Shown: positions 12,170-54,873, counted from the stretch's first letter. The stretch: 64,000 nucleotides of DNA from an uncultured Christensenella sp. (GCA_910577945.1 CAJTNI010000005.1:1-64000), one strand, 5' to 3'. A program made the numbers and translations. The notes: generated from the sequence alone by a model not told the origin.

Positions 12170-13492
12170 ATGCGTAAAAATCGTATAACGGCGGGAACGC
12201 TCTTAAACGCACGGCGCGCGCGGCTTACGACGCGGTTTTTCGGCTTGCGTTATGCGGCGCGCGTAAAACGCAGGGTTTCGCTTGCGCCCGCCGTGCTTGC
12301 GGCGGTAGCGGCGGGCTTGCTCGTTCCGTTGGTGATAATGAACGCGCTGCGCATAGACGCGGGGCGCGCGGAATGGTGGTCGCGCACCGTCGCGCGCGCG
12401 TACGAGCGAGCGGTGGGCGCGCTTACGTCGTGGCTGCCGATATCGGTGTACGAGCTGTTCGTAGTGATTTTAATCGCCGCGGGGCTGTTTCTTTTCGGGC
12501 GGCTCGTAATCAATCTGTGTCGCGGCGCGTTTATGAGAATAGTGACGGGCGTGCTCGCCGTCGCAGTGGGCGCGGCGTACGTCGGCAACGCGTACATGCT
12601 GTCCATGGGGTTCGGATATTATCGCCGCAAAATGCCGTTGCCGCAAGCGGGCGCGGATTATCGCGTGGAAAAGGTGATAGAGGTTGCCGAGTATTTTTTG
12701 AACGATTACAACGCGCTTGCGCAAAAGCTGCCGCGCGACGAAAACGGGTGCGTGATAAATCCGTACGGGTTCGACGGCACGGCGCGGCGCATCGCCGCCG
12801 AGTACGCCAAGCTGGACGACGGGTATTTCTCGCCGTATACGCCGAACGCGAAGCAGGTGGTCAACAGCTGGCTTATGTCGGACATGCTGATTACGGGCGT
12901 CACGTTTTTGCCGACGGGCGAGGCGAGCTTGAACGTCGGCGCGCCGCCGTCGGTAGTTACTTTCACAACGGCGCACGAGCTGGCGCACACGAAGGGCGTA
13001 CAGCGCGAGGGCGACGCAAACCTCATCGCGCAGTACGTAATGCTTTCGTCCGAGGACGAATACCTGCGGTACTGCGGTTATTACAACGCGTTCGGCGCGG
13101 TGATGTCGGCAATCGTTTTGGCAATGGGCGACGAGCTGCAATACGCAACCGAATACAACAGGCTGGTCGGCGAAATGACCCCGCTGATTTCAGTCGAAAA
13201 ATTGTACGCCAATAAGTATTGGAGCTCGCAGCCCGATATTATCGGAAAGCTCGGCGAGTTCTTTAACGACTTGTATTTAAAGTTCAACGGCGCGAGCAAC
13301 GGCACGGGCAGCTACGGCGACGGCAACCACACGGACGCAATACGCCCGACCGACCCGAGCACGGGCGAGCCGATGACAGACCCCGACACGGGCAAGCCCG
13401 TGTATATCCCCGTGTACTCGACGCTGCAAAAAGTATTCTTTTATCTGTACGAACAAAAAACCGCACGGTTTGGAATAATCAAGGAGTGTTGA
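12170..13492 (+). CDS. DUF3810-like membrane protein with HExxH zinc-metallopeptidase-like motif
   Basis: N-terminal TM segments. TAHELAHTKG carries the HExxH motif. Confidence 0.55.
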   Translation: MRKNRITAGTLLNARRARLTTRFFGLRYAARVKRRVSLAPAVLAAVAAGLLVPLVIMNALRIDAGRAEWWSRTVARAYERAVGALTSWLPISVYELFVVILIAAGLFLFGRLVINLCRGAFMRIVTGVLAVAVGAAYVGNAYMLSMGFGYYRRKMPLPQAGADYRVEKVIEVAEYFLNDYNALAQKLPRDENGCVINPYGFDGTARRIAAEYAKLDDGYFSPYTPNAKQVVNSWLMSDMLITGVTFLPTGEASLNVGAPPSVVTFTTAHELAHTKGVQREGDANLIAQYVMLSSEDEYLRYCGYYNAFGAVMSAIVLAMGDELQYATEYNRLVGEMTPLISVEKLYANKYWSSQPDIIGKLGEFFNDLYLKFNGASNGTGSYGDGNHTDAIRPTDPSTGEPMTDPDTGKPVYIPVYSTLQKVFFYLYEQKTARFGIIKEC

Positions 13493-14901
13493 CAAAACGC
13501 TACGGTTATGATAAACTCAATCGTATGATAAGGGAAGATAATAAATCGCGAGGGGAAACGACTGTATACGAGTACGATACAAACGGGAATATACTGACAA
13601 AAACAGTGTATGCGTTTGCATTGGGCGAAATAGTCGATAGAGCTCCGATAGCGCAAATCCCTTATGCGTATAAGGCGGACGGATGGCGCGACCGCATGGC
13701 GGAGTACAACGGCGAAAAATGCGAGTACGACGCGATAGGCAATCCTACCAAGTACAGAGGCGTAATAACGCAGTTTAAATACTGCGGCAAAATGACCGCG
13801 TACGGCGGCAATACGTACGCATACGACGCAAACGGCGACCGAATCGGAAAAACGGTAAACGGCGTGGAAACGCGGTTTATAACGGCGTCGGGTAAAGTAA
13901 TTCGCAGTATAACAAACGGCGTTGTGACCGATTTCTTTTACGATGCGGGCGGACTTGCGTGCATACGGCATGACGGCTTGGATTACATAGTCCGCAAAAA
14001 CGTGTTTGGCGACGTAACGCATATATACGACAAAGCGGGCAAGCTCGCGGCACGGTACGCGTATGACGTTTGGGGAAAGTGTAAAGTGCTTAACGCAAAC
14101 GGCGTGGAGGATGCCGACGTTCTGTCGATAGGCAACATAAACCCGATACGATACAGAGGGTATTATTTCGATACGGAAAGCAGGCTGTATTACCTGCACG
14201 CACGCTACTATGACCCGGAAACGGGGAGGTTTATATCCGCAGATAACACTCGCTACGTAACCCCCGATGCCGTAAACGGGCTTAATCTGTACGCATACTG
14301 TGCCGATAACCCCGTAATGAACGTAGACCCTAGCGGACATTCGGTGCTGGCGATATTTTTGACGCTGGCGATAGGGGCGTTATTGGGCGGATTGAGCGGC
14401 GGAATAACTTCGCTTGTTTCCGACGGAGATTTTTGGTCGGGTTTTAGTGGAGGCTTGGTTTCGGGCTTAATTTCCACTGCCGGCTTGGGTTTAGCTGTTA
14501 CAATGGGCGGATTGGGGGGAGTTGCTTTATCTGCATTTTTTGGTTTTGGAGCATCGTTCACAGGTAGTATAGTGCAACAGGGATTTGCGAGTAATTGGAC
14601 GAGTTTTGATTTAAAGTCGGCTCGAATTTCAGGATACATAGGCATGACTATGGGAGCAGTTACATATGGACTGACAAACGGTTTTATGCGTGAGGCAGTG
14701 GGGGTGTTTGATAATATATTCGATAAGTCTATCGGCTTTGCGAGAAGATACGCTGAATTTATGTCTTATTCTGTTCCGTCTTTGGTAAGTACGCTGATAT
14801 TTAATTTGCCTGTTACAGTTGCGCAAACGATAATAGAAAGCGTAATCGGGTGCGGAAAATCCGATAAAAGTAAATCTTCATTGGTAGGGGGGATTATTTG
14901 A
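13486..14901 (+). CDS. RHS/YD-repeat protein C-terminal fragment with glycine-zipper membrane toxin tip (orphan polymorphic-toxin module)
   Basis: YD repeats (YEYDTNGNIL, YAYDANGDRIGK). RHS core end motif RYYDPETGRFISAD ... DNPVMNVDPSGH. After that comes a ~180-aa tail with GxxxG motifs and lower GC. The product is only ~470 aa and there is no N-terminal RHS region upstream. Confidence 0.75.
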   Translation: MLTKRYGYDKLNRMIREDNKSRGETTVYEYDTNGNILTKTVYAFALGEIVDRAPIAQIPYAYKADGWRDRMAEYNGEKCEYDAIGNPTKYRGVITQFKYCGKMTAYGGNTYAYDANGDRIGKTVNGVETRFITASGKVIRSITNGVVTDFFYDAGGLACIRHDGLDYIVRKNVFGDVTHIYDKAGKLAARYAYDVWGKCKVLNANGVEDADVLSIGNINPIRYRGYYFDTESRLYYLHARYYDPETGRFISADNTRYVTPDAVNGLNLYAYCADNPVMNVDPSGHSVLAIFLTLAIGALLGGLSGGITSLVSDGDFWSGFSGGLVSGLISTAGLGLAVTMGGLGGVALSAFFGFGASFTGSIVQQGFASNWTSFDLKSARISGYIGMTMGAVTYGLTNGFMREAVGVFDNIFDKSIGFARRYAEFMSYSVPSLVSTLIFNLPVTVAQTIIESVIGCGKSDKSKSSLVGGII

Positions 14902-15389
14902 AAAAAGAATTAAAAGTTGTGCCGTCTATGTTTTGGTTAATCGGCTCAATTGTTCTAATTATAAGTTTGTATTCAATCTTTATATTTTCGTATACATATC
15001 CGCCTGCCCGTCCCGATGAAATCTTTGACCATATATTATTGATATTTTGTACGGGCGTATTACCGACAGTGATATTTGTTACGGCAATACCGCGTGGTAT
15101 ATTTTCGGTAGTTACGATAAGCGAGCGCGGGGTAAGGCGTACGCTGTTTATGGGACGATTCAAGCTTGAAATGAGTTGGGAGGAAATGGCAGAGATGCGG
15201 TATTATCCTCGGCTGCTGCCGTTTGTATTCTTTTCCAAAACCTGCACATTGGACGGTATGTATTACGACAAAATAATAAAAAGGCGGGACGTTATACAGG
15301 TAACGCTGTCAAAGAAAGTATTGCAAGCGATACGGCAGAATACCAAAAAGGAAATAATAAACCTGCCCGAAAGCTATAACGAGCAATAA
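14898..15389 (+). CDS. Putative immunity protein (small 3-TM membrane protein) for the RHS toxin tip
   Basis: Immediately downstream of the RHS tip and overlapping its stop (TGA/ATG). Hydrophobic N-terminus. GC about 40%. Confidence 0.5.
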   Translation: MKKELKVVPSMFWLIGSIVLIISLYSIFIFSYTYPPARPDEIFDHILLIFCTGVLPTVIFVTAIPRGIFSVVTISERGVRRTLFMGRFKLEMSWEEMAEMRYYPRLLPFVFFSKTCTLDGMYYDKIIKRRDVIQVTLSKKVLQAIRQNTKKEIINLPESYNEQ

Positions 15390-15664
15390 AAGACACAAAG
15401 AGCTCTGCACAGTAATGCGTCGGGCTCTTTGCGTATGTCAAAGCTGATATTATACAAATGGTTAAATCACAGGTCTCAAAGTACTGAAATTGGAAAATGT
15501 AGTTTTTAACCGCTAAATTAATAGGAAAAGTGTGTTGGTATTCTAAAAAGTCTGTTATCTACGATTATATTTTCTGCGGAAAATTTATAATTAGTGTTTT
15601 GTTGATAGGCGTTGTGACTATTTGCTACAACTAAAAACAGTCGACACTTTTTGAATACTTTATT

Positions 15665-15710
15665 ATGCAATATTGCATTTATTGACATTTTATTTAAATT
15701 ATGCTAAAAT
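15665..15710 (+). promoter_or_regulatory. Promoter of SIR2-HerA operon with upstream perfect palindrome
   Basis: ATGCAATATTGCAT is a 14-bp perfect palindrome (15665-15678) abutting TTGACA-17-TAAAAT (15682-15710). RBS aaaggag precedes ATG 15770. Confidence 0.5.
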
Positions 15711-15769
15711 ATTAATGTCGCAAATAATTTTTTAATTGGATAGTCATTTCAATTACAAAGGAGATTCTG

Positions 15770-16768
15770 ATGAGAATTTATAACATAGATGAACAAAGGC
15801 AAGATGTGAAATCGTATTTGATTAAATGTTTATCGTCTAACAATATAAGTTTTTTGCTAGGGGCCGGATTTAGTACGCCATTTTTAAGGGTTCTAGGAGG
15901 CTTTGAAGAACGATTAACGGTTGCAATTGAATTAGGAGATGTAAAACAAATAGTGTTATTGGAAAAGGAGTTTTTTAATAATAGTATTTTACCGATTCTT
16001 AATCAAAAAAAATTAGACACTAATATGAAATATCGTGATAGTTTTTTAAATTCTATAAAGAACATTTTAGAAAAACGTCATAGTTCGGTTTTGCATAAAA
16101 TGTTTAATATTTTTACCACGAATTATGATGTGCTTATAGAACAATCTTTGGAACGTAATGCAATTGAATATTCTGATGGATTTTCTGGGCGACTTAATCC
16201 ATTGTATTCAACAACGAATTTTGGAAGAGTTATAAAAAAGACAAGTGCAATAGCTCACAAATCAACAGAAATAGTAACTGCAAATTTGCTAAAACTACAT
16301 GGCTCATTGAATTGGACACAAACAGATGCTGGCATTGCTTTTGAGAATTGTAACCAAAAGATTCAACGTGTAAAAAAGTGCTTACAAAATGACGATGAAT
16401 TTATGTGCACTTATGAAAAAGAGTTCTTAATTATCAACCCTAATAAGGAAAAATTTAACACAACTGTTTTAAATGCGAATTATTATGATCAATTAAGAAT
16501 TTTTGGAAATGAGCTCGAACAAAGGAATGCTCTTTTGTTAGTTTATGGATTTTCGTTTAATGATGAGCACATACGAACAATAGTAGAAAGAGCTTTAATT
16601 AATCCAACATTAACAGTAGTTATATTTGCATTTAGAAAATGGGATGAAGACGCATATAAAGAAAAATTTGACAAATATCACAATGTTGTTGTATTACGTA
16701 ATAGCGGCGAATTCAATATTGAAAGCGTATCGCGGTTTTTTAAGGAGATTGATAATGATATTGAGTGA
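15770..16768 (+). CDS. SIR2-like (SIR2_2/ThsA-type) NAD-dependent domain protein, defense-associated
   Basis: FLLGAGFS (GAGxS), FTTNYDVLIE (TTNYD), KLHGS (catalytic His), LLVYGFSFNDEH. The order and spacing match ThsA-type SIR2 domains. GC about 33%. Confidence 0.8.
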   Translation: MRIYNIDEQRQDVKSYLIKCLSSNNISFLLGAGFSTPFLRVLGGFEERLTVAIELGDVKQIVLLEKEFFNNSILPILNQKKLDTNMKYRDSFLNSIKNILEKRHSSVLHKMFNIFTTNYDVLIEQSLERNAIEYSDGFSGRLNPLYSTTNFGRVIKKTSAIAHKSTEIVTANLLKLHGSLNWTQTDAGIAFENCNQKIQRVKKCLQNDDEFMCTYEKEFLIINPNKEKFNTTVLNANYYDQLRIFGNELEQRNALLLVYGFSFNDEHIRTIVERALINPTLTVVIFAFRKWDEDAYKEKFDKYHNVVVLRNSGEFNIESVSRFFKEIDNDIE

Positions 16769-18524
16769 AGTTTTGAAAATAGGTGAAGTAAGAGAAGTAT
16801 ATGGACATAAAATCAAAGTTGGAATTTATAGCGAAAAAAATGTCGAATACTTAAATTATGACGGAATACCTATTAAAAATGTTGGAATAGGTAGTTTTAT
16901 CATTATCAGAAAAGGATTTTTAAATATAATAGGGAAGGTAGATGGAGAGTTTATAACTGCTACATCTTTAGAAAGTGGCTATGCGGAAAAAGGGCGTGGT
17001 ATAGCAAGAACATTAGATGTGTCTGTTTTAGGACATTTAGAAAACGATCAATTTGTATTTGGTGTTATTGAGCTTCCATTAATAGGTAACTTTGTATACA
17101 TTATAGATGAGAGCCTACAAAAGAATATTTTAGACCATCATTCGCAGTTTGCATTAAATTTAGGTACTTTGATAGAGTATGATAATTATCCATTTAAATT
17201 AGATTTGCAAGAATTGATATGCAGTCATATCGGAATATTTGGTAATACCGGTAGTGGAAAATCAAATACTCTAGCAAAGATATATACTGAACTATTTGAA
17301 AATTATTCTAGCAATCAACAGTTTAAAAAGAATTCAGCCTTTGTTTTTTTTGACTTAAATGGGGAATATAGAAATTCGTTTCCTAATGGTCATTATTATG
17401 AATTGAATTCAATTGAAAATGAAAAATATCCATTAAATGAGCGGTATTTAACAGATATTGAATTTTGGTCGGTTGTTTTACAGGCTTCGGAAAAAACACA
17501 AAAACCGTTCATAAATGAATGTATAAAAAATTATAAAAAATGTAAGCAATCATCAAATTATTTCACGACTCAAAAATTAAGCGAACTTGTTTTTTATAGT
17601 CAAAAGAACTATGGGGATATTAGGGCATTTATAATTCACATATTTACATGCTTAGAACTTGAAGATGAGATCATATCATTTGATGACAATGTAAGCATTG
17701 AGTATAAAAAACTTATAAGCAATACGCGTGGACAATTAGATTATTTGGCGACCTATAATGAATTGTTTGGTGACATGGATGACAAAGTTATTTCTGTAAG
17801 TCATCTAGATGATATCCAAATTTTTTCTTTAATTGTTTATTACACTTATTGTAAAGAATTAAATAAAGGAAAGATTTCGACTCAAAATATTATTCAATTA
17901 TTTAATAGGATGGATAAAATATTATCGGAATTGGGAAATATATTCGAATTCAAGGGTGATTGTCCAAATGAGCATGTTGTTATTATATCATTATTTAATT
18001 TAAATGCAGAATTGAAAAAGTTAGTGACTTATATAATATGTAGAGATAAATATGAGAGTCATAAAAGACATCGTGGAAATGAGCGATTGCAGTCATCCCT
18101 TCATCTAATTATTGAAGAAGCACATAATATCTTATCGTATGAATCCGCGCGCGAGAGTGAGGAGTGGAAGAATACTCGATTAGAAACATTTGAAGAAATT
18201 ATTAAAGAAGGAAGAAAATTCGGAGTTTTTTTGACTATTGCCAGCCAAAGGCCGGCGGATATTTCGGAAACAATTATCTCACAGTTACATAACTTTTTCG
18301 TTCATCGTTTAGTGAATGCTGAAGATTTAAAGCGGATTTATAAGTCTGTTGCATTTTCTGATTCTGTTTCTAATAATATGATTCCAATTTTACCAGCTGG
18401 TGGTTGTTTATTTTCAGGCATTGCGGCTAATTTCCCATTATTAGCAAAAATTGATTGTTTAGAGCAATCTATCGCGCCTAACAGTTCTAACGTTAATTTA
18501 ATAGATATTTGGGGATTAAAATAA
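16755..18524 (+). CDS. HerA/FtsK-like ATPase (DUF87), partner of SIR2
   Basis: Walker A IGIFGNTGSGKSNT, Walker B LIIEEAHNIL, HerA-like FGVFLTIASQRPADI. RBS aaggag lies 7 nt upstream of ATG 16755. It overlaps the SIR2 stop codon (translational coupling). Confidence 0.8.
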   Translation: MILSEVLKIGEVREVYGHKIKVGIYSEKNVEYLNYDGIPIKNVGIGSFIIIRKGFLNIIGKVDGEFITATSLESGYAEKGRGIARTLDVSVLGHLENDQFVFGVIELPLIGNFVYIIDESLQKNILDHHSQFALNLGTLIEYDNYPFKLDLQELICSHIGIFGNTGSGKSNTLAKIYTELFENYSSNQQFKKNSAFVFFDLNGEYRNSFPNGHYYELNSIENEKYPLNERYLTDIEFWSVVLQASEKTQKPFINECIKNYKKCKQSSNYFTTQKLSELVFYSQKNYGDIRAFIIHIFTCLELEDEIISFDDNVSIEYKKLISNTRGQLDYLATYNELFGDMDDKVISVSHLDDIQIFSLIVYYTYCKELNKGKISTQNIIQLFNRMDKILSELGNIFEFKGDCPNEHVVIISLFNLNAELKKLVTYIICRDKYESHKRHRGNERLQSSLHLIIEEAHNILSYESARESEEWKNTRLETFEEIIKEGRKFGVFLTIASQRPADISETIISQLHNFFVHRLVNAEDLKRIYKSVAFSDSVSNNMIPILPAGGCLFSGIAANFPLLAKIDCLEQSIAPNSSNVNLIDIWGLK

Positions 18525-18593
18525 ATTTAATATGGATTTTAACGCAAAAGAATTTATATCACAAAATGGGGGTTGTTCACGGTAAAACGTAAA

Positions 18594-19090
18594 ATGCGCA
18601 TTCTTTTTTCACCGACACTGGTTATTGGTTCGTTAATTGGTTTGTTTTCGTTAGTCGGCATTTATTTACAGTCGTATATGAACCATGTCGAATAGGATTT
18701 AAAGAACATATTGTTATATTTATTATTTGGACATTATGTTGCGTAGGATTAAGTATAGCCGGTGTCGTAACGGGAGCGCGAAAGGTATTTTGCATAATAA
18801 CGATAGATGAGACGGGAATATCTCGGTCGTTTTTAGGTGTGTTTTGCAAGCTGCACATGTCATGGGACAATATAGCGGAGATTTGTTACTTTACAGCGCT
18901 AGCTGAATTTTTGGTATTTTCGAAAAATAAAAAAGTGTCAACAATGACGTATAATAAAATGAGAATGGAGAAAGATGCTATTGAGATGACGATAAGCAGG
19001 CGTAGATACAGAGTAATTAAGCAATATTTACAGCAGCCGATAGTGGGCATGCCCGAAAAAGTCAAAGAACGTTTGGAGCGCGAAAAGTAA
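18594..19090 (+). pseudogene. Frameshifted paralog of the RHS immunity gene
   Basis: Frame 1 gives MRILFSPTLVIGSLIGLFSLVGIYLQSY..*, which aligns with MKKELKVVPSMFWLIGSIVLIISLYSIFIFSY. A second frame continues ...GISRSFLGVFCKLHMSWDNIAEICYF..., which aligns with ...GVRRTLFMGRFKLEMSWEEMAEMRYY... The single frame break is near 18685. Confidence 0.55.
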
Positions 19091-19160
19091 AATAAATGAA
19101 AAATCAAACGACAGTGAAATAATAATTACCAAAAGTTGTTAATCGGCACTTAACCGAGAT

Positions 19161-19192
19161 AGCCCGTATCAATAACGATTCGGGCTTTTTCG
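19161..19192 (+). terminator. Rho-independent terminator
   Basis: agcccg-tatcaataacgatt-cgggct followed by ttttc. Confidence 0.55.
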
Positions 19193-19305
19193 TGCGAAAA
19201 AAGTCGTTCTAAGCGCTTATATAAAAAATTTCTAAAAATATATACTCATTGTAAGTCAATATCCAACAAAAGCGACCGATAGTTCTATATACTTACCGTA
19301 GGCAT

Positions 19306-19755
19306 ATGGAAAATGACGTAGTTAATGGATTTAAAACAACGCTCGCTGAGTTGATGTCGGAAAACGGTCATAGCGCGACCAGCTTGGGGCGCGCTATCGA
19401 CGTGAATATGTTTGTCGTGCGCAAATGGTTGATGCGTGCAAAAGACGTCAAACTGAAATCGCTTATAAAAATAGTAAATTATTTCGGTTGCTCGTTGGAA
19501 TATTTATGCGGTAAGACGGATGAAATTATTACGTACAAGCCGCAGCCGTTGCCGCCTTTTCGCGATTGGCTGAAAACGGTTTTACATAATTGCAATAAAT
19601 CGTCTTACAAGCTGATAAACGACACCAAGATTTCTTCGTCGCAGTACAACAGCTGGTTACACGGCGGAATGCCGATGCTGACTACGCTCGAAACAGTGGC
19701 GGAGTATTTGGACGTCACTCTCGATTATTTGGTGGGGCGTCATGCCGATAAATAG
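19306..19755 (+). CDS. XRE-family transcriptional regulator with two tandem HTH domains
   Basis: Two Cro/C1-type HTH repeats: LAELMSENGHSATSLGRAIDV... and LKTVLHNCNKSSYKLINDTKIS...LDYLVGR. GC about 45%. Confidence 0.65.
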   Translation: MENDVVNGFKTTLAELMSENGHSATSLGRAIDVNMFVVRKWLMRAKDVKLKSLIKIVNYFGCSLEYLCGKTDEIITYKPQPLPPFRDWLKTVLHNCNKSSYKLINDTKISSSQYNSWLHGGMPMLTTLETVAEYLDVTLDYLVGRHADK

Positions 19756-19786
19756 ATAATCGCACACATAATTAAATATTTCTTTT

Positions 19787-20116
19787 GTGTATACGGAGGG
19801 GGAAATGACGGGACAAAAGCAAAACGCATTCGTACACGAGCTTGTGTTGATATTGTATCATTCTAAATTCAGGGATAAATATTTAAGCGCCGAAACGGTT
19901 GCCGGCATTGATAAGTTTATGGATATGTGTCGGGCTAAGGATATGCTGGATAATTCGCAAACCGCATTTGTCGTGGAGCATTATTACGATATACGCAACG
20001 GTTTGACGATAGGCGAACGCCGCGCGCATGTGGGGTTGAGCGACGCCGCGTTGTATCGGTTTAGACTCAAAATAGCAAGCAGTTTAATGAATTGCTTAAA
20101 TACGATAAATACATGA
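19787..20116 (+). CDS. Hypothetical small protein, possible sigma-70 region-4-like HTH (ArpU/Tn916 Orf7-like)
   Basis: The C-terminal segment NGLTIGERRAHVGLSDAALYRFRLKIASS resembles region 4 HTHs. The start may be the ATG at 19805. Confidence 0.35.
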   Translation: MYTEGEMTGQKQNAFVHELVLILYHSKFRDKYLSAETVAGIDKFMDMCRAKDMLDNSQTAFVVEHYYDIRNGLTIGERRAHVGLSDAALYRFRLKIASSLMNCLNTINT

Positions 20117-20188
20117 TTCCGTCGTTATTTAACGTAATAAAAAAATCGGCATTTTCGCCGATTTTCAGGGGTGCGTGAGCGTTGCGCA

Positions 20189-20428
20189 TCACAGCAAAAT
20201 TTTGGGGTCGTACTCGGGTTTTTTGAATACGACGGAGTCGGGCTTGTCGGCGATTTCCTTTCGGAATACGTCCTGCCATTCCTCGGCGGTGTAGTCCTCG
20301 ATGGTGCACGTAATCCAATGCTCGTCCGCGCCGAGGTCTCGGGACAGCACTTCCACAAGGTCGCGCGCGAGTTTTTCCTTTTGCGCTTGCGTTCTGCCTT
20401 CCAGCATTTTAATCGAGATATTGGGCAT
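20189..20428 (-). CDS. 4-oxalocrotonate tautomerase family enzyme
   Basis: MPNISIKMLEGRTQAQKEKLARDLVEVLSRDLGA with N-terminal Pro1. RBS aagagga is present. Confidence 0.7.
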   Translation of the reverse strand: MPNISIKMLEGRTQAQKEKLARDLVEVLSRDLGADEHWITCTIEDYTAEEWQDVFRKEIADKPDSVVFKKPEYDPKILL

Positions 20429-21122
20429 TTTCGGTTTCCTCTTGATTTTTAATTTCTTGTTTCGTTTCCCGTTGCGCACGGGCGTCCGACGCTTTTTTAA
20501 GCGGAGGAAGCAGCTTTAAACGCAACAGCAGCGGAATCATTGCCACGGTAACGGCTATATTGATTGCGGCTACGCCTAGCTGCATTGCGCGCGACGGTCC
20601 GAGGTATACCCAAAACGATTTGTTGATGTACGATTTTAGTTTGAGGTAGTATCTGCACCATACCCATATTGCAAACGAGTCGAACAGTAGCGTATACAGC
20701 ACAGAGCATACCACGCCCGCAAACACGAATTTTACGATGTAGCTTTTGACTGGTAGCTTAAAGCAAAACGCCGCCGTCACGCCGAAGAGCACGCAACCGA
20801 GGGTAAGCAGCGGGTTTATTGGTCCACGTGGAATTATCACCGCGCCGAGTACGTCCGATACAAAGCATACCGTGCCGCCCCCGATAGGACCGACGACTGC
20901 GGCGGCAATCAGCCATATCACGTAAATCAACGTGATTTTAAACGAGTCGGTCAAGGTAAGACACTGTCCGATTAACTTCATCACGATTGATAGTGCGGCA
21001 AACAAGGCGGTGTATGCGAGCCACTTTGTAGTGCCGAAGGTGAGCTGTTGCGAGCGGACTTTACGCGATGAAGTATTCAGCTTGTCCGGAGTCGCAATTT
21101 CCTGTTGAGCGTTTTTACTCAA
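20409..21122 (-). CDS. ECF-transporter S-component-like membrane protein
   Basis: 5-6 TM helices. TTKWLAYTALFAALSIVMK is typical of ECF S components. The start is uncertain: TTG at 21122 with RBS aaaggagaag, or GTG at 21185. Confidence 0.45.
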   Translation of the reverse strand: MSKNAQQEIATPDKLNTSSRKVRSQQLTFGTTKWLAYTALFAALSIVMKLIGQCLTLTDSFKITLIYVIWLIAAAVVGPIGGGTVCFVSDVLGAVIIPRGPINPLLTLGCVLFGVTAAFCFKLPVKSYIVKFVFAGVVCSVLYTLLFDSFAIWVWCRYYLKLKSYINKSFWVYLGPSRAMQLGVAAINIAVTVAMIPLLLRLKLLPPLKKASDARAQRETKQEIKNQEETENAQYLD

Positions 21123-22939: not shown

Positions 22940-25390
22940 GTGGAGATATTGCGCAAAAATTCGATATATTCCGCTTGCAAGCGCATATGCGCTGCAATCA
23001 TCGCGGCAGCGCTCGCCGCGACGCTTTTTGCGTGCGCCGCGCCGATAAGTATTTCGTTCTACGCGAGCGAGCTCGTCATGTACGTGGGCGAAACGCGCGA
23101 TATAGCGTACTACGCGCAGCTCACGCCGTCGTACGGCGCAGTCGTCGAATTGGAAGTAGACGGCGAGTGCGTCGAGGCGGACGGAACGCGCGTGACCGCC
23201 GTCGCCGCGGGCGAGGCTGTCGTTACTGCGCGCACCGCTACCGACAGCGCTACAATCAAAATCAAAGCGGAATACCGCGCCGCCAACGGCGTATATTTAA
23301 CAACGGACGGAAAAACTGTGCAAAACGTAAAGGCGGGCGACACGCCAGAGCCCGTGGCGTTTTCCGCCGCTACGGACGACTACGCCGACCCCGACGCGCA
23401 ATACGTTTGGACGGTCAACGGCAGTAAGGTCGGCGAGGGGCGCGGCTTCGAGCTTGCGCCCGAAGCGTACGGCGAGTACGCCGTTACGGTAAGCTGCAAC
23501 GGCGTTGCGCGGACGGAGACAGTGCGAATTTACAGAGAGACGGACGCACGCGCGTATTACGACGGCGCGCTCAATCAGGACGGCGATTATTCCGCGGTGC
23601 GGTTTTTCGCGGTCGAGAGCGCGGACTCGCGCAATCCGCGTTCGGTGTTCGAATGGACGGTAAACGGCGAAGTCGCGAGCCGTTCGCAGATATTCGACTT
23701 TACGCCGACGGCGGCGGGCGAATACGAAATCGCGGTTGCGGTCAACGGTGCGGCGCGGCGGTTCGAGGGCGGCGACAGCGTGCTTGTAACAGCTACGGGA
23801 GTGCGCGCGCCCGACGTGTTCGAGGTGGCGTTCGACGACTGCGACGGCGTGTTTGTGCGCTGGCGCGACGGCATGACGGCGCGCGGCGTTTCCGTAACCG
23901 ACCCGAGCGGCGTTAGGCGCGTGTATGAGCTGACTGACGCGCGCTATGCAGAGCGGTTTGCGGGCGGCGAGTTCGACGCGACGGGGCTTATCGAGGTTTG
24001 TGCGGACAATGCGGGCGTATACAAGCTTCGCATAACGGCGGACGGGCGCGGCGACGAATGCGAATTTATGCAGTACGACAGAACCGCAGAGCCGTATTTG
24101 ACCGAAAACGTATTGTGCCGAAATTCCTTTATATCCGACGCTGCACAAGCCGATGAATGGGTGCGCGAGCTGTACGCTTGCGGCATAACGCGCGCGGAGT
24201 GCTACGTCGCGCGCGGCGTCGAAAATATCGAGTCGGCGATTATCGCGGCGGCGCAAGCGCTGGGATTGACGGCGGAGACGCAGGCGAACGGGGCGGTCGT
24301 ATCGGTAGCGTTCGGCGATTATGCAAACGCGCCCGCGGTCGCTACGCCCGCGCCTGCGATAACTCAAATATATTCGGTGCTGCCGCACATAGAATACGAC
24401 ACGGCGCAAAGACGCAACGCGGCGTACGTTTTGCCGATTGACAGAATAAAAAAATCGGTGCGTGTGGATAATTCCGAGCAGCTGTTGTGCGTCGCGCTCG
24501 GCGGTCGTCGTCCCGCGCCCGAGAGCGGCAGCGCCGCAGGTCGGATATACGGCGTCGCGCGGCGCGTGCTGCTGAGCATTATCGGCGCGGACTACGCGCC
24601 GTCGCAAAAGGCGCATGCGATTTACGATTGGCTGCAATGGAGTACGAAAAAGGCGAACGCAGCGGCGGCGGACGGCAGCGCGAGGTATTTGGAGGGGTTG
24701 TTCGGCGACGGCAAGCCCGAGGACGGCGACGGCATTGCGCCGACGGGCGCGCTCGATTCGCTCGGCATGAGCAAGGCGTTTGCGCTTTTGTGTCGCATGG
24801 AAGGCATAGAATGCGATATCGAACGCGACGCCGACGGGTATTACAATACCGTCGCGCTTGACGGAATAACGTATATAGCGAACGTCTACGGCGGCGAAAG
24901 CTCGGGCGTCGTATCGACGCGGCGCGTCGAGCTGACCTCGCACGCGGGGATTATGCTGCCCTACGACGGCGCGATTTTCGACGACGGCGAGCTGTATTAT
25001 TTGCAAAAGGGCTTTTACGACGGCGAGTATTACGATTACTATATCGACGCCGCGGAGCGCGACGATTACGAGACGTGCAGGGCGGCGGTGTTTGCCGCGT
25101 TTTCGGAGCGGGCGCGCGGGGGCGTGACCGTGCCGAGCGTAGACGGCATCACCACGTTCGAGCACGGCACGCTCGGCGCGGAGTTTATGCTCGGCGGCGT
25201 CGTCACCGACGCGACGGTAAGCGGCGTTTCCGCTATGCTGCGGCGCGCGGCGGTCGAATATTACGAGGTATTTATTAACAAAAACGTGCCCGACGCGGTA
25301 GTCGACGGTATACGCGTGTACCGCGAAGGGAACGTTATGCATATAACCGTAACTGTTCCCGCAGGCTCGGGAAAAATCGAGGGCGTATGA
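22940..25390 (+). CDS. Lipoprotein with BIG2 Ig-like domains and a degenerate (triad-less) transglutaminase-like domain
   Basis: Lipobox LFAC. BIG2-like repeats. KAHAIYDW...GMSKAFALLCRMEGIECD aligns to the downstream paralog but has no Cys, His or Asp at the triad positions. Confidence 0.65.
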   Translation: MEILRKNSIYSACKRICAAIIAAALAATLFACAAPISISFYASELVMYVGETRDIAYYAQLTPSYGAVVELEVDGECVEADGTRVTAVAAGEAVVTARTATDSATIKIKAEYRAANGVYLTTDGKTVQNVKAGDTPEPVAFSAATDDYADPDAQYVWTVNGSKVGEGRGFELAPEAYGEYAVTVSCNGVARTETVRIYRETDARAYYDGALNQDGDYSAVRFFAVESADSRNPRSVFEWTVNGEVASRSQIFDFTPTAAGEYEIAVAVNGAARRFEGGDSVLVTATGVRAPDVFEVAFDDCDGVFVRWRDGMTARGVSVTDPSGVRRVYELTDARYAERFAGGEFDATGLIEVCADNAGVYKLRITADGRGDECEFMQYDRTAEPYLTENVLCRNSFISDAAQADEWVRELYACGITRAECYVARGVENIESAIIAAAQALGLTAETQANGAVVSVAFGDYANAPAVATPAPAITQIYSVLPHIEYDTAQRRNAAYVLPIDRIKKSVRVDNSEQLLCVALGGRRPAPESGSAAGRIYGVARRVLLSIIGADYAPSQKAHAIYDWLQWSTKKANAAAADGSARYLEGLFGDGKPEDGDGIAPTGALDSLGMSKAFALLCRMEGIECDIERDADGYYNTVALDGITYIANVYGGESSGVVSTRRVELTSHAGIMLPYDGAIFDDGELYYLQKGFYDGEYYDYYIDAAERDDYETCRAAVFAAFSERARGGVTVPSVDGITTFEHGTLGAEFMLGGVVTDATVSGVSAMLRRAAVEYYEVFINKNVPDAVVDGIRVYREGNVMHITVTVPAGSGKIEGV

Positions 25391-27954
25391 GAAAAAGATT
25401 TATCAGGCTGATAAGCGTAGTAACGGCGCTGGCTGTGTGCGCGTTTCCCGCGCTGCTGCTGTGCGGCTGTTCGTTCTTTTCGTTGGGCGTATCGGACGGC
25501 GTGGAGTTTACGCGCTCGGCGGTCACAATCGGAGTGGGCGAAACGTACGACCTCGCCGATATAATTTACAGCGAAACGCGCTCGTATAATCTTTCCGTAA
25601 CGTCGGGCGACGCGTACGTGTCGCTGTCCGGCACGCGCGTTCGGGGCGTTGCGGCGGGCACTGCCGTCATTAAGGCGGAAACGTTTATGTACTCGGACAC
25701 CGTGCGGGTGCGCGTGAAGGAGGCTGAGAGCGACGGGCTCGACGTTGTTTACGACGGGGCTTTGACGCAAACCTTGGGGCAAACCGCCGAGGTGTTGTTT
25801 ACGCCCGTCGCTAGCGGTTCGGTAAGTAACGGCACTGTGGATTGGTATATAAACGGCGAAAAGCGCACGACGCTTGCGGCAAGCGACGCGTTCGCTTTCG
25901 AGCCGACGGCGGCGGGCGAGTTTAAGGTGCGCGCGGAGAGCGGCGCGCATGCCGTCGAACACACGGTGCGCGCATACTATGCGACGGACGCGGAGCTCAA
26001 AGTCGAAGGCGCGCTGAATCAACCCTCCGAGCCGTTTGCGAGCGTTACGTTTATTGCCGATATCGAGCGCGACGCGCGCAATCCCGACGGTTATGCGGAG
26101 TGGTTTGTGGACGGCGAAGCGGTAAAGGCGGGCACGGACGCGCGGTTCGTTTATAACCCCGTTGCGGGCGAGCATACCGTTTCTGTACGGGTAAACGGCG
26201 GTAGGATTTATAAGCGGACTGTGCGTTGCGTGGGCAGTATTACGCCCGCCGTGCCGTCGCTCGAATACGATAATCTTTTCCCGCATGCGTATTTAAAGCA
26301 TGACGCAAAGGGGCGCGTCGCGGTGGAAATCACTTCGCCTACGGGCAGCGTTGCCGAATATGCGCAGACCGATTCGGAGTATTCCGCGCTGTTCGGCGAC
26401 GAGGGCTTCGACGTCGGCGGTTTGATATCGCTGTGCGCCGACGGCACGTCGCGGCGCGCGTATCGGTTCAGGGTAAAATCGCTGGGCGACGGCGACGCGT
26501 TGACGGAGAGCGAATACTCGCAGTACTACACGTTTACGCAGCTGCCCGCCGATGTTAAGCCGTATTTGCAGCAGCGGTATATGGATAAGGACTATTATAT
26601 AACGTCCGCATACGAGTTTGTAAACGTATTGGAATATAACGTGCTGTTCCGCAGCAAAACGACGGCTAACCCGCGTATATCGTACGATTGCTATATCGCG
26701 TTCGAAACGGAGCTTACGGCGGAGCAGCTGTGGTACGACGCGTTCGAGCTTGCCGCGACGAGCGGGTATTACAACAATATCAAAACGACGCTCAAAAACA
26801 GCGTGTTTTCGGTGTCGTGCACGGTCGATACGGTCAATTCGCCGTCTACGCAGTCGCGCGACGCGCACGGAGAAAGCGATTACGCCACGCCGCTGCACGC
26901 GGTCGTTCCGCATATCAATTACGACGAGAACAAGTACAGAGCGGCGAACTGTAAGTTCCCCATCGACGGGCTGACGAATACTCAATCCGTCGAGTATACA
27001 GACGAGCTGTACATGACGGCGGAAAACAACGCGCGTCCAGTGCCCGTGCGCGGTTCGGCGGCGGACGCGGTTTATCAAGCGGCGCGCGATATTTTGCGCA
27101 AGATTTGCACTGACGATATGACCGATAAGCAAAAGGCGCACGCGATTTACGATTGGGTTATGTGGCAGGTCACGTACGACACGCCCGCCGCGGACAAAGG
27201 CGGCGAGGACTATTCGGCGTACTACATGGAGGGCGTGTTCGGCGACGGCAAAACCGCAATCGGCGGCAAGGTGTACAATCCGTACGCCGTTTGCGACGGC
27301 ATGAGCAAGGCGTATTCGCTTATGTGCAATATCGAGGGCATACCATGTAAGCGCGTGGGCGGCGTTGCGGGCACGTCGCTCGACAGCGCGGGCGGGCACG
27401 CTTGGAACAAGGTTTTCGTGGAAGGCGGTTGGTACGTAGTCGATTGCACTTGGGGCGATTCTATCGGACAGCTTAATTTGGGCGGGCGCGACGCGGAGTA
27501 CGAGCTCGGATTGCACGACCACCTGTTCCTGACCGACGCGCAAGCCGACTTGACGCATTTCGAGCCGTACGAATCGGGCGACAGCTCCGTAATCTACGCG
27601 CCCGAAACGCCCGCGCGCCCGCTGGACGTTTATCGCGATATGACCTACAACGGCGTCAAAATAAACTGCCGCATTACGTGCGGCGAGAACGCAACGGCAA
27701 GGCTTGCCGAGATAGGCGAAGCGTTTGCGCGCGCGTACGTCAAGCGCGATTCGATAACCGTGCCGGGCGGAGAGAACGGAGGCGTGTACGAGCTCGATTA
27801 CGAGGGCTTGGAAATATGCGTCGGCGACGGAGTTGTGTTATCCGAGCAGAGCGCGCGGTCCGCGCTCGTCGATTCCATACGCGCAGTGCATCGCAACGCC
27901 GACGTGCGGGTGTTCTCTTTCGACGGAACGCTGCTCGTGCTGATGCGCGTTTAA
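25387..27954 (+). CDS. Lipoprotein with BIG2 domains and intact transglutaminase-like cysteine protease domain
   Basis: Lipobox LLCGC. Core AVCDGMSKAYSLMCNIEGIPCKRVGG ... GGHAWNKVFVEGGWYVVDCTWGD (Cys-His-Asp). It overlaps the upstream gene (ATGA). Confidence 0.75.
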   Translation: MRKRFIRLISVVTALAVCAFPALLLCGCSFFSLGVSDGVEFTRSAVTIGVGETYDLADIIYSETRSYNLSVTSGDAYVSLSGTRVRGVAAGTAVIKAETFMYSDTVRVRVKEAESDGLDVVYDGALTQTLGQTAEVLFTPVASGSVSNGTVDWYINGEKRTTLAASDAFAFEPTAAGEFKVRAESGAHAVEHTVRAYYATDAELKVEGALNQPSEPFASVTFIADIERDARNPDGYAEWFVDGEAVKAGTDARFVYNPVAGEHTVSVRVNGGRIYKRTVRCVGSITPAVPSLEYDNLFPHAYLKHDAKGRVAVEITSPTGSVAEYAQTDSEYSALFGDEGFDVGGLISLCADGTSRRAYRFRVKSLGDGDALTESEYSQYYTFTQLPADVKPYLQQRYMDKDYYITSAYEFVNVLEYNVLFRSKTTANPRISYDCYIAFETELTAEQLWYDAFELAATSGYYNNIKTTLKNSVFSVSCTVDTVNSPSTQSRDAHGESDYATPLHAVVPHINYDENKYRAANCKFPIDGLTNTQSVEYTDELYMTAENNARPVPVRGSAADAVYQAARDILRKICTDDMTDKQKAHAIYDWVMWQVTYDTPAADKGGEDYSAYYMEGVFGDGKTAIGGKVYNPYAVCDGMSKAYSLMCNIEGIPCKRVGGVAGTSLDSAGGHAWNKVFVEGGWYVVDCTWGDSIGQLNLGGRDAEYELGLHDHLFLTDAQADLTHFEPYESGDSSVIYAPETPARPLDVYRDMTYNGVKINCRITCGENATARLAEIGEAFARAYVKRDSITVPGGENGGVYELDYEGLEICVGDGVVLSEQSARSALVDSIRAVHRNADVRVFSFDGTLLVLMRV

Positions 27955-33837: not shown

Positions 33838-34419
33838 TTATATAGCTTGAACGTCGGCAAGAATTTTCGTCAGTTCCGCGATTGATTTTTTGCCTCGTTT
33901 TATTTGAACGCTGTCGATTATCACTCGTATCGGTGTGTAGACAACGCCTATGACCGTACCTACGATGCACATTATTATCTTCATCCAAAATCCGTCTTTG
34001 CGCTCGATATTTCCGTTTTCGTCGATAACGTATTCTACGCCTTGTTCCATTTCCTTTTGTCTGTGCATTTGCTTAGCTGCTTTGTGCCAAGTTATGCCCG
34101 TATAGATTCCGCACAAAGCGATTCCGCAAATAAGCGCCACCAAATCTATTCCGTTTTCGCCGACAAAAGCGGCGATAATAAGGAATAATCCTATCGCGTA
34201 TAATATGCAGCTCACAATTATGCGGATAAGTCGGCTCTTATTGTCTTTTCGGTAAATCCCAATCGCTTTATTAGTCTTGTCGCAAAGGCAATCGACGCAC
34301 AACGTGCCGTACTGCTCTTTGATAAACGCGGTCTTATCCGCGCACTCTTTGCATATCCCCGCACCGCAAACGTTGCATTGCGCAACCGCGCCGCGGTCGG
34401 GGTGTCGTTCACATTCCAT
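33838..34419 (-). CDS. Zinc-ribbon (CxxC x2) N-terminal domain membrane protein
   Basis: MECERHPDRGAVAQCNVCGAGICKECADK...CVDCLC is followed by 3-4 TM helices. RBS ataggagaaaaa. Confidence 0.45.
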   Translation of the reverse strand: MECERHPDRGAVAQCNVCGAGICKECADKTAFIKEQYGTLCVDCLCDKTNKAIGIYRKDNKSRLIRIIVSCILYAIGLFLIIAAFVGENGIDLVALICGIALCGIYTGITWHKAAKQMHRQKEMEQGVEYVIDENGNIERKDGFWMKIIMCIVGTVIGVVYTPIRVIIDSVQIKRGKKSIAELTKILADVQAI

Positions 34420-34490
34420 GTTTTTCTCCTATAAAGATTTTTTCGGCAAGCTTAATTCTTTCGCATATTTATGCGAATAAGAATTTTGTG

Positions 34491-34547
34491 TATGAGAATA
34501 CTCATACTACAAATATTATATATGTATTTACTCATAATGTCAATGAG
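34491..34547 (+). promoter_or_regulatory. Two inverted-repeat operators upstream of XRE regulator
   Basis: TATGAGaataCTCATA (34491-34506) and CTCATaatgtcaATGAG (34531-34547) share TATGAG/CTCATA half-sites. TATAAT at 34564 sits 6 nt before ATG 34576. Confidence 0.45.
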
Positions 34548-34575
34548 TTTTTGCATTTCAGTGTATAATTTTTTT

Positions 34576-34917: not shown

Positions 34918-34952
34918 AGCGATATTATTCGCCGCTATACCGCTTATTGTGC

Positions 34953-40794: not shown

Positions 40795-40953
40795 CGCGTT
40801 AACCGCGCATGCGCTACTTGCGCAAGGCTTCGGCTATGCCGAGGCTTCGCGTATTGCGGGCGCAATTTCGCCGCGAGCGTTGCGGCGTTCGGCGCGCAAA
40901 TACGTAGGATATAATCGCAATCATTCTTCGACATTTATAATCGGTGATATAAT

Positions 40954-54808: not shown

Positions 54809-54822
54809 CGCAGATAAAAGAC

Positions 54823-54849: not shown

Positions 54850-54873
54850 GCGTTGCGGGAAATGCGTCAAGCG

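Follow-up and report, generated by a model that had tools for sequence, protein, structure and literature searches.

A predicted SIR2-HerA anti-phage cassette of foreign origin within an RHS toxin/immunity relic of a Christensenella genome

What is a low-GC pair of genes doing among the remains of an RHS toxin/immunity array, and where does the acquired DNA begin and end? The window analysed here, meaning the whole stretch of DNA, comprises 64,000 nucleotides from an uncultured Christensenella sp. The pair at 15770-18524 very probably encodes a SIR2-HerA (Nezha-type) system of a short-SIR2 subtype, in which two genes are predicted to defend against phage by abortive infection. Its parts are as follows.

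15758..15763, plus strand: SIR2 ribosome-binding site AAGGAG, where homology to related cassettes starts
15770-16768, plus strand: ORF1, predicted SIR2_2-type NADase effector, 332 aa
16755-18524, plus strand: ORF2, HerA/DUF87 ATPase, 589 aa

The ATG of ORF2 at 16755 precedes the ORF1 stop codon (16766-16768), such that the two frames share 14 nt, and a ribosome-binding site of its own (AAGGAG) lies 8 nt 5′ of this ATG. The SIR2 and HerA genes are translationally coupled, as an earlier note on this DNA had claimed. A longer ORF2 beginning with TTG at 16626, returned by an ORF finder, is used neither by public gene calls nor by the homologues, and was rejected. The HerA gene is found directly 3′ of the SIR2 gene on the same strand in all 61 metagenome loci counted (SIR2 relatives with at least 1.5 kb of downstream sequence), and the 14-nt overlap is kept in homologous loci at 43-87% identity.

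ORF1 carries the motifs that the earlier note had read in it, GAGFS (aa 31-35), TTNYD (116-120) and KLHGS (175-179). Alignment assigns the catalytic residues to N118/D120 in TTNYD and H177 in KLHGS, all three of which are invariant in 38 SIR2 homologues. They align with N226/D228/H287 of SaSir2, in which an H287 mutant loses NADase activity (PMC11514289), while the equivalents in PsSIR2 are N163/D165/H212 (PMC11472057). Pfam SIR2_2 matches ORF1 at 1.7e-14, above the gathering score, and the PADLOC SIR2 model PDLC04080 matches it at 2e-64 (protein positions 11-318, profile positions 11-333 of 347). Its best PDB sequence matches, 8j4u_A (5e-18) and 8yhx_G (8e-17), are SIR2-HerA complexes. The AF2 model of the protein (pLDDT 89.4) has an N-terminal helix at aa 10-23, and each of its top 39 Foldseek matches is a SIR2 subunit from one of three SIR2-HerA complexes, Ec, Sa or Ps (E 3e-15 to 6e-11, TM 0.51-0.71). 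ThsA and DSR2 were matched at 6e-6 or weaker (~1e-5), with DSR2 at a TM of 0.17-0.18 when normalised to the target. The motifs had previously been labelled ThsA/SIR2_2; the SIR2_2 half of that label stands, whereas the likeness to ThsA does not (Foldseek ~1e-15 versus ~1e-5, and no SLOG domain).

ORF2 matches Pfam DUF87/HerA at 1.7e-22, likewise above the gathering score, and the PADLOC HerA model PDLC04097 over its full length at 4e-136. Walker A (GNTGSGKS, aa 163-170), Walker B (IIEEAHN, 452-458) and ASQRPADI (496-503) are all present as described earlier and all appear in alignments to 8wiv and 8xau, and the nucleotide-binding motifs are invariant in 30 HerA homologues. The HAS-barrel-like N-terminus suspected from the sequence was recovered as an all-beta region at aa 8-150 of the model, consistent with an N-terminal barrel. 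For ORF2, too, the best PDB matches come from SIR2-HerA complexes, namely from their HerA chains (1e-30 and below), and across the two ORFs the best PDB sequence matches are the complexes 8j4u, 8yhx and 8w9l/8wld. In Foldseek, SaHerA and PsHerA come out on top (2e-24) for a HerA model of moderate quality only (pLDDT 71.9, TM ~0.4), and DUF4297-type HerA chains form a second tier of structural matches. The profile, structure and alignment checks suggested alongside the original SIR2-HerA assignment all came out in its favour: Pfam and PADLOC profiles assigned both SIR2_2 and HerA, AlphaFold models searched with Foldseek placed SIR2-HerA complexes at the top, with ThsA and DSR2 behind them, and the catalytic His and Walker motifs align with the solved complexes. 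In NCBIfam, the best models are SIR2_antiphage for ORF1 (3.8e-30) and HerA_antiphage_2 for ORF2 (1.3e-37). ORF1 scores 105 bits against SIR2_antiphage, where the equivalog cut-off is 500, and ORF2 scores 130 bits against HerA_antiphage, where it is 850; since these narrow equivalog models describe other subtypes and are nevertheless the best-scoring families, the missed cut-offs point to a divergent subtype and are compatible with a place in the wider family.

The cassette lies in a variable island, the other features of which are listed here.

13480..20188, no strand: variable island of ~6.7 kb, from the DUF3810 gene to the tautomerase gene, with an empty site in L011
13486..14901, plus strand: RHS fragment, 471 aa, 5′-truncated, with YD-shell end, RHS core and toxin tip (RHS_repeat 2.5e-9)
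14898..15389, plus strand: imm1, putative cognate immunity gene, 163 aa, membrane-like, overlapping the RHS stop codon
15396..15431, plus strand: strong hairpin 3′ of imm1 (~-21 kcal/mol for 15386-15440)
18594..19090, plus strand: imm2, frameshifted imm1 paralogue (three-frame translation: N-terminal part in one frame, the rest in another)
19306..19755, plus strand: double-HTH XRE/RstR-like regulator, 149 aa (HTH_26 2.7e-11, in two stretches)
19787..20116, plus strand: 109-aa ORF, last island gene (a 103-aa gene call in L001)

A related Christensenella sp. MAG (L011) lacks the whole 13480-20188 stretch but keeps the flanking synteny (FtsX, Band7, hyp260, DUF3810, tautomerase, ECF, MurJ), with its DUF3810 and tautomerase genes ~100 bp apart. 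GC drops from ~0.55 to 0.28-0.45 across the island; neither a tRNA nor an integrase was found there, nor any convincing flanking repeats. The cassette has a GC content of 29.5-29.8%, between flanks of 53% (left) and 55.4% (right); a further comparison gives 0.298 against 0.549. It is foreign DNA of ~30% GC within a ~55% GC chromosome, and its horizontal acquisition is established by this composition together with the L011 empty site. The earlier view of a low-GC, acquired cassette therefore holds, although the values then given (33% against ~60%) do not. The 149-aa regulator also matches phage_RstR (3e-10) and phrog_8 (6e-15), and its gene is absent from the L011 empty site. The 109-aa ORF matched no Pfam, NCBIfam or PHROGs family.

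The surroundings had been called an RHS toxin/immunity locus, and the RHS core and immunity-like genes are indeed there, but as a 5′-truncated relic instead of a full RHS gene. Rhs_assc_core (TIGR03696) matches the fragment at 1.9e-22 over aa 193-285, and the core ends in a PxxxxDPxG motif, DNPVMNVDPSGH, followed by an unclassified, Gly-rich, hydrophobic C-terminal tip of 186 aa that matched no Pfam family. The start of the fragment coincides with the junction with the DUF3810 gene. In contig L018, which shares nucleotide homology with the window from 13480 to 15444, the RHS ORF extends further upstream by at least 190 aa (at least 663 aa by another figure); that contig also carries an orphan toxin-tip fragment. 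Neither a full-length RHS gene nor any second one was found in the window. Because the toxin gene is truncated, the island holds a relic, not a working weapon. Directly 3′ of the longer RHS gene in L018 is an imm1 that is 98% identical to that of the window; seven imm1 homologues in all were found, and no Pfam or NCBIfam family was matched. The hairpin at 15396..15431 is inside the stretch common to the L018 RHS locus and is likely the end of an RHS/imm1 transcript. The C-terminal 136 aa of imm2 are 33% identical to imm1 (E 2e-22), and L001 and L002, which were assembled independently, carry the very same frameshift; imm2 would be a pseudogene or an orphan immunity gene of putative function. 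The cassette is thus placed between an intact putative imm1 and its frameshifted paralogue, and no RHS gene was found near any of 80 other SIR2-HerA loci.

The closest relatives of the cassette are found in Clostridiales MAGs (L139/L015 and L003) as a three-gene module of SIR2, HerA and a 508-aa product, here termed g3. Nucleotide identity to the cassette is ~87.5% in L139/L015 and 84% in L003, and the SIR2 and HerA proteins are 87-90% identical. All three relatives share with the cassette the ribosome-binding site, the overlap and the first 10 codons of g3, of which the window retains the following.

18532..18563, plus strand: g3 remnant of ~10 codons (MDFNAKEFIsQ), right-hand end of the transferred DNA (3′-boundary alignment with L015 and L003)

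Homology starts at 15758 in L003 and at ~15748 in L139/L015, and homology to L139 ends at 18563. By these alignments, the transferred DNA runs only from the ribosome-binding site to ~18560. In the relatives, g3 starts 8 nt 3′ of HerA and encodes a helical, unannotated protein; the block common to two unrelated defence islands extends from 12 nt 5′ of the SIR2 ATG to the g3 stop. Close relatives lie in classical defence islands that contain DarTG, OLD-like ATPases, type I RM, nSTAND and GmrSD. One close relative has an upstream HTH gene, which is absent at the cassette, as is an intact g3; with both missing, the cassette copy could be mis-regulated or incomplete. It is conceivable, if on balance doubtful, that the native unit in this sub-lineage is a three-gene system in which g3 moves with the pair and may be an accessory component (sensor or regulator), the window being a g3-deletion derivative with a new promoter in an RHS relic. 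If so, the window would be a ready-made comparison showing what g3 contributes. As a gene without known relatives that might be a new accessory component, g3 is the one lead from this locus.

Transcription of the pair would depend on sequences outside the transferred DNA.

15445..15757, plus strand: AT-rich spacer of 313 nt with palindrome and promoter, not common to L018 nor to L003/L015/L139
15665..15678, no strand: palindrome ATGCAATATTGCAT, perfect, 14 bp, 3 nt upstream of the -35 hexamer, candidate operator
15682..15710, plus strand: sigma-70-type promoter TTGACA-17-TAAAAT with extended -10 TG (11/12 positions, a consensus match only)
19161..19190, plus strand: intrinsic-terminator-like hairpin AGCCCG...CGGGCT followed by TTTTT (from sequence and fold)

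The spacer gave no BLAST match against any fetched locus. Its promoter is the best promoter-like match in 13000-20600 and lies ~60 nt 5′ of the SIR2 ATG; the total of promoter-like sites in AT-rich DNA here is not above that in shuffles. The claim of an own consensus promoter is supported as to the match, but not as to ownership: with transfer limited to the ribosome-binding site to ~18560 (homology starting at 15748/15758), promoter and palindrome are local and not parts of the cassette. The palindrome is perfect, as had been reported, and is the sole exact copy, with near matches no more numerous than expected by chance. It is not statistically remarkable, being one of 16 perfect 14-bp palindromes in the window, and when the 380-nt intergenic region is shuffled, at least one arises in ~5.6% of cases. 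It is possibly an operator, for which the 149-aa XRE/RstR-like regulator is a candidate binder. By folding, no hairpin or terminator was found between the HerA stop and imm2, and the hairpin at 19161..19190 is the probable SIR2-HerA transcript end. The transcript would probably start at the local promoter (15682-15710) and run through SIR2, HerA, the g3 stub and the frameshifted imm2 to this terminator.

The loss of g3 invites a less favourable reading, namely that the cassette has become inactive or crippled. It would then be the left-hand two-thirds of a SIR2-HerA-g3 module, deprived of g3 and of its native upstream regulation, and, as a passive passenger of a decaying island, would no longer defend against phage. 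The shared block of the two unrelated defence islands does extend to the g3 stop, only ~10 g3 codons are kept in the window, and the neighbouring genes have decayed too (the truncated RHS gene and the frameshifted imm2). Nevertheless, both ORFs are intact with all invariant residues kept, and SIR2 and HerA are under purifying selection, with dN/dS at 0.07-0.08 for both genes. An identical cassette sequence is carried by five contigs from different samples, and the pair is framed by a good promoter match, two ribosome-binding sites and a terminator. Canonical SIR2-HerA systems, moreover, function as two genes, and g3 is absent from 80 of 80 more distant loci. A defunct remnant is therefore improbable.

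Less credible still are roles other than phage defence, whether in the repair or processing of DNA or in stabilising the island as an addiction (toxin-antitoxin-like) module. HerA proteins first became known as partners of the NurA nuclease in the repair of double-strand breaks in archaea, and archaeal HerA structures are among the matches of ORF2 (4d2i at 4e-18, and 9x1m); a partner-checked NADase could also, in principle, act as an addiction module. The HerA gene here, however, has no NurA or other nuclease partner, and a Pfam scan of neighbouring ORFs found no NurA, Mre11 or Rad50. The partner is SIR2 in 61/61 loci, defence-type HerA outranks archaeal HerA in both profile and structure matches, and the relatives reside in defence islands.

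If the pair is an abortive-infection system, as we favour, the studied systems of E. coli, S. aureus and Paenibacillus suggest how it might work. A HerA hexamer would dock onto a ring of SIR2 subunits, with the N-terminal helix of SIR2 (aa 10-23) set against the HerA barrel. By the same analogy, the NADase would be held off in uninfected cells by auto-inhibition and ATP, and released by infection signals such as phage proteins, DNA ends or a drop in ATP. NAD+ would then be converted to ADP-ribose and nicotinamide, and growth of the infected cell would stop before phage release. As identity to the studied systems is low, what is known of their trigger, of their oligomer state and of the side activities of HerA (helicase, nuclease or nickase) is not confidently transferable. 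As to origin, the cassette may have entered the former RHS toxin/immunity array by recombination, the array itself presumably being a truncated insert between two core genes.

With this locus the Christensenella-like Clostridia, a gut lineage that has received little study, gain a SIR2-HerA system assigned with confidence. The locus also gives base-level junctions for the capture of a defence cassette: the captured piece starts at the ribosome-binding site, ends 10 codons into g3 and lies between the paralogues imm1 and imm2 of the truncated RHS array, with a local promoter supplied.

The solved SIR2-HerA structures of E. coli (8j4u/8su9), S. aureus (8yhx) and Paenibacillus sp. 453MF (8wld) offer the closest comparison. 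SIR2-HerA/Nezha systems were the best matches in every sequence and structure search. Like the window pair, they have the HerA gene 3′ of the SIR2_2 gene within a single operon, and they have both folds, the catalytic Asn/Asp/His and the three ATPase motifs (Walker A, Walker B, SQRP) in common with it. Identity to the solved proteins in structural alignments is 18-22% for SIR2 and 17-23% for HerA, and SIR2 is shorter (332 aa versus 381-428 aa), most of the missing length falling in the N-terminal/small-domain region and in the C-terminal tail. Since EcSIR2 is a dodecamer, PsSIR2 a 12- to 14-mer and SaSir2 a dimer (PMC11472057, PMC11514289), no oligomer state is to be assumed for ORF1/ORF2. Publications already cover the family, as the earlier note had supposed, along with its structures and its way of killing infected cells by NAD+ depletion, and the locus opens no new mechanism (Garb et al., preprint 10.1101/2021.12.14.472415; PMC11472057; PMC11514289; PMC13434337; for types I-III, Zhang et al., 2026).

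Both window proteins match the short-SIR2 subtype (PDLC04080/PDLC04097) over nearly their full length. A pair on an E. coli IncF plasmid (NZ_CP027311; WP_024232765, 348 aa, and WP_044863035, 602 aa) has the same sizes and order, with full-length identities of 33% (SIR2) and 35.5% (HerA), but differs in host phylum, GC and overlap (4 nt versus 14 nt). The three-gene modules of L139/L015 and L003 have an intact 508-aa g3 and lie in classical defence islands, whereas the window copy has lost g3, has another promoter region and lies inside an RHS relic.

ThsA and DSR1/DSR2 share with ORF1 the SIR2_2-type catalytic domain and NAD+ depletion as the outcome, which is predicted here, but their fold-search E-values are ten orders weaker than those of SIR2-HerA subunits. 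Thoeris ThsA was rejected, as the 332-aa ORF1 is a SIR2 domain only, without SLOG; no TIR-family (ThsB) match was found by Pfam among the scanned island ORFs. DSR1/DSR2 was rejected because ORF1, at 332 aa, lacks the C-terminal sensor region of that ~1000-aa protein. HerA-NurA resection machinery does not fit a SIR2 partner without NurA, nor does DUF4297-HerA fit a partner that matches SIR2_2 only.

Novelty had been sought in the genomic context, but toxin/immunity genes and anti-phage systems have been described side by side before, in "genomic armories", hotspots that mix antibacterial effectors or immunity genes with anti-phage systems (bioRxiv 10.64898/2026.08.01.741415), GMT islands being a related hotspot description (bioRxiv 10.1101/2023.03.28.534373), so the context of this locus is not very novel. 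Like the armories, the island combines an RHS polymorphic-toxin fragment, immunity genes and an anti-phage system in one variable region. The described cases are from T6SS-bearing Gram-negatives, while the host here is a Christensenella-like Firmicute, and the locus is one Gram-positive example of the pattern.

The SIR2 and HerA genes lie within a 6.7-kb insertion in chromosomal DNA, the latter indicated by gyrB and gyrA at 38839–43410 of the window. A related Christensenella sp. metagenome-assembled genome (L011) has flanks syntenic with those of the window, with amino acid identities of 93% for Band7, 75% for MurJ, 55% for DUF3810 and 84% for the tautomerase. Because its DUF3810 and tautomerase genes are ~100 bp apart, positions 13480–20188 of the window represent an island inserted between these two genes. 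The island has the following layout:

13486–14901, RHS fragment
14898–15389, putative immunity gene (imm1)
15445–15757, 313-nt spacer with palindrome and promoter
15770–16768, SIR2 gene
16755–18524, HerA gene
18532–18563, stub of a third gene
18594–19090, paralogue of the immunity gene (imm2)
19161–19190, terminator
19306–19755, double-helix-turn-helix (HTH) regulator gene
19787–20116, 109-aa ORF

No integrase or transposase gene was found in the island, and Rfam gave no RNA element within it. The cassette formed by the SIR2 and HerA genes has no meaningful flanking repeats; the direct and inverted repeats around it are short and at chance level only, among them a 14-nt inverted pair at 15660 and 18787 with one mismatch. 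The right end of the island (19306–20116) encodes a 149-aa RstR/XRE-like double-HTH regulator and a 109-aa product without an assigned family. Both genes are missing from the empty site, and neither this segment nor the imm2 region has a BLAST match in any compared locus.

The two ORFs are as described in the earlier note. ORF1 (15770–16768) encodes a SIR2 protein of 332 aa, and ORF2 encodes a HerA protein of 589 aa from an ATG at 16755, which is also the start in public gene calls for identical contigs. The proposed translational coupling is borne out by an AAGGAG 8 nt upstream of this ATG and by a 14-nt overlap with the end of ORF1. The SIR2 motifs occur at the expected positions (GAGFS, aa 31–35; TTNYD, 116–120; KLHGS, 175–179), as do those of HerA (GNTGSGKS, aa 163–170; IIEEAHN, 452–458; ASQRPADI, 496–503). 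Pfam SIR2_2 matches ORF1 (1.7e-14) and DUF87/HerA matches ORF2 (1.7e-22), and the PADLOC-DB models PDLC04080 (SIR2; 2e-64, over almost the whole length of ORF1) and PDLC04097 (HerA; 4e-136) match as well. Among NCBIfam models, SIR2_antiphage and HerA_antiphage_2 score best, although neither protein reaches the narrow equivalog cut-off. When ORF1 was compared with PDB sequences, the only matches were SIR2 subunits from E. coli (8j4u/8su9), S. aureus (8yhx) and Paenibacillus (8w9l); for ORF2, the HerA proteins of SIR2-HerA systems came first, those of DUF4297-HerA systems next and archaeal HerA last. In a sequence alignment with the solved structure, N118 and H177 of ORF1 correspond to SaSir2 N226 and H287, a conserved dyad in which the H287 mutant lacks NADase activity (PMC11514289); the equivalents in Paenibacillus SIR2 are N163/D165/H212 (PMC11472057). 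The catalytic residues of SIR2 are invariant among 38 homologues, and the Walker and SQRP motifs of HerA among 30.

Structural comparison gave the same assignment. The top 39 Foldseek matches of the ORF1 AlphaFold2 model (pLDDT 89.4) are SIR2 subunits of three SIR2-HerA complexes (E 3e-15 to 6e-11, TM 0.51–0.71). ThsA and DSR2 rank behind these at an E-value of only ~1e-5, so the label "ThsA-like" that ORF1 had carried should read "SIR2-HerA-type"; fold ranking and domain content together rule out a ThsA-like reading. The ORF2 model is of moderate confidence (pLDDT 71.9), with its best matches in the S. aureus and Paenibacillus HerA proteins (2e-24), and its N-terminal domain is all-beta, in agreement with the barrel previously suggested there. 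With the corrections given here, the interpretation as a SIR2-HerA system is upheld: membership is shown at the level of sequence and fold, by the catalytic residues and by the obligate pairing of the two genes.

This pairing is found well beyond the window. Homologues at 43–87% SIR2 identity have the same SIR2-then-HerA order and the same 14-nt overlap, and a scan of metagenome contigs gave 61 SIR2-relative loci with at least 1.5 kb of downstream sequence, in all of which the gene immediately after SIR2, in the same orientation, encodes a HerA relative. Both genes are under purifying selection, with dN/dS values of 0.07–0.08 against the two closest relatives. The cassette is of foreign origin: its GC content is ~30% everywhere it was found, even in hosts with flanks of up to 55% GC. 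The low-GC contrast reported previously stands, with corrected figures: instead of 33% against 60%, the cassette has 29.5–29.8% GC, the left flank 53% and the right flank 55.4%. Close relatives of the cassette occur in classical defence islands, with an OLD-like ATPase, DarTG and a type I restriction-modification (RM) system in L139, nSTAND and RM genes in L003, and RM genes, GmrSD and recombinases in L007–L010. E. coli IncF plasmids carry a full-length pair that is 33% (SIR2) and 35.5% (HerA) identical to that of the window. The INPHARED phage collection returned distant terminase-like matches only. SIR2 relatives of 22–37% identity are present in 39 viral or prophage contigs of IMG/VR (L100–L138), which indicates that prophage-like elements are a further vehicle of the family.

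Nucleotide homology with the cassette relatives runs from 15748/15758, at the ribosome-binding site, to 18558–18563, with nothing beyond. The promoter and palindrome, which the earlier note had regarded as the cassette's own, therefore fall outside the transferred DNA; both lie in the 313-nt spacer, which has no BLAST match in any compared locus. The cassette was presumably captured by recombination. The promoter itself (TTGACA-17-TAAAAT with a TG extension, 15682–15710) is the best consensus match within 13000–20600, and a single transcription unit would run from it through SIR2, HerA, the stub of the third gene and imm2 to the terminator at 19161–19190. The palindrome ATGCAATATTGCAT at 15665–15678 is perfect over 14 bp. 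Such palindromes are not rare, as the window contains 16 of them and shuffling the 380-nt intergenic region yields at least one in 5.6% of cases. Further copies, which could point to a regulon or to autoregulation, were sought with up to three mismatches; only three matches came up, equal to the chance expectation, none of them ahead of the HTH gene. The combination of palindrome and promoter had no match in IMG/VR.

The earlier note's placement of the cassette in an RHS locus is partly right. The RHS fragment retains the RHS-associated core (TIGR03696, 1.9e-22) and ends in a Gly-rich, hydrophobic, unclassified toxin tip (aa 286–471 of the fragment, 14340–14901), for which no Pfam toxin family was found (Ntox23 at E 0.075 only). 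A copy with 98.9% nucleotide identity on another contig (L018) extends upstream by at least 190 more codons; the homology between this contig and the window begins only at 13480 and stops at 15444, directly past a strong hairpin behind imm1. The window contains no full-length RHS gene, and its copy is a truncated relic. Only seven homologues of imm1 were found, each on a contig of <3 kb, and the toxin tip and imm1 could form an undescribed membrane-acting toxin/immunity pair. The second immunity-like gene, imm2 (18594–19090), is a frameshifted paralogue of imm1 (33% identity, E 2e-22); since the frameshift is the same in independent assemblies, imm2 is either a genuine pseudogene or a gene that is read only through a frameshift. 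In the native RHS locus of L018, imm1 is followed (2482–2704) by a promoter-like sequence and by a short ORF in which the final ~30 residues of the toxin tip occur again, with 94% nucleotide identity to window 14790–14885. This ORF is an orphan piece of toxin tip, such as RHS tip displacement leaves behind. The RHS association does not recur in 80 metagenome SIR2-HerA loci: tblastn with the window's own proteins only, which could miss unrelated RHS genes, gave no RHS-, imm1-, HTH-regulator- or third-gene-like gene in their flanks. The sharing of hotspots by toxin/immunity genes and anti-phage systems is a pattern already published for Gram-negative bacteria.

In the closest relatives of the cassette, from Clostridiales metagenome-assembled genomes, a third gene (g3) encoding 508 aa starts 8 nt past HerA. 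Its copies and remnant are as follows:

L139, 12763–14289, g3
L003, 12767–14293, g3
L015, 3116–4642, g3
window, 18532–18563, remnant of g3

The remnant comprises the first ~10 codons only (MDFNAKEFIsQ). The homology between L003 and L139, whose islands are otherwise unrelated, begins 12 nt ahead of SIR2 and ends exactly with the stop codon of g3 (79.7% nucleotide identity). PADLOC, NCBIfam, PHROG and PDB contain no g3 relatives, nor do plasmids or IMG/VR, and a weak, sub-threshold match to DUF5677 is the sole family lead. The gene is also absent from the 80 more distant SIR2-HerA loci (tblastn). The gene may be an accessory third component of the system, a neighbour that hitch-hikes with the pair, or a defence gene in its own right that is so far undescribed. 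It seems rather unlikely that g3 represents a new accessory part of a three-gene subtype, of which the window would be a natural deletion derivative.

Elsewhere in the window, positions 1–958 hold the 3′ portion of a 16S rRNA gene (Rfam SSU_rRNA_bacteria, 966 bits), and the first ORF after it encodes an epimerase on the opposite strand (1759–2661). As Rfam found no 23S or 5S rRNA and ARAGORN no tRNA gene anywhere in the window, the rRNA genes appear to be unlinked. A second low-GC patch lies at 33838–34917 (GC 43% over 34001–35000); it contains a 192-aa ORF of no assigned family plus an HTH_3 regulator in divergent orientation, and could likewise be a small acquired module. The stretches 22940–27954 and 52295–63425 code for large proteins that are secreted or at the cell surface: two PKD/BiPBP_C proteins, of which one has a transglutaminase core, two GH31 glycosidases that contain PA14 inserts, and a 1166-aa protein with Big_2 repeats.

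By analogy with characterised systems, HerA and SIR2 would assemble into a single large complex, in which auto-inhibition and inhibition by ATP would keep the NADase off until infection; NAD+ hydrolysis would then arrest the infected cell. SIR2-HerA subtypes vary in trigger, oligomer state and the side activities of HerA, which include helicase/nuclease activity in Nezha and nickase activity in E. coli type III. The window pair is only ~20% identical to any studied system, so these particulars are not transferable to it. The family is well described, with structures and a 2026 subtype classification, and the window pair is a new, divergent member of a short-SIR2 subtype already covered by PADLOC models.
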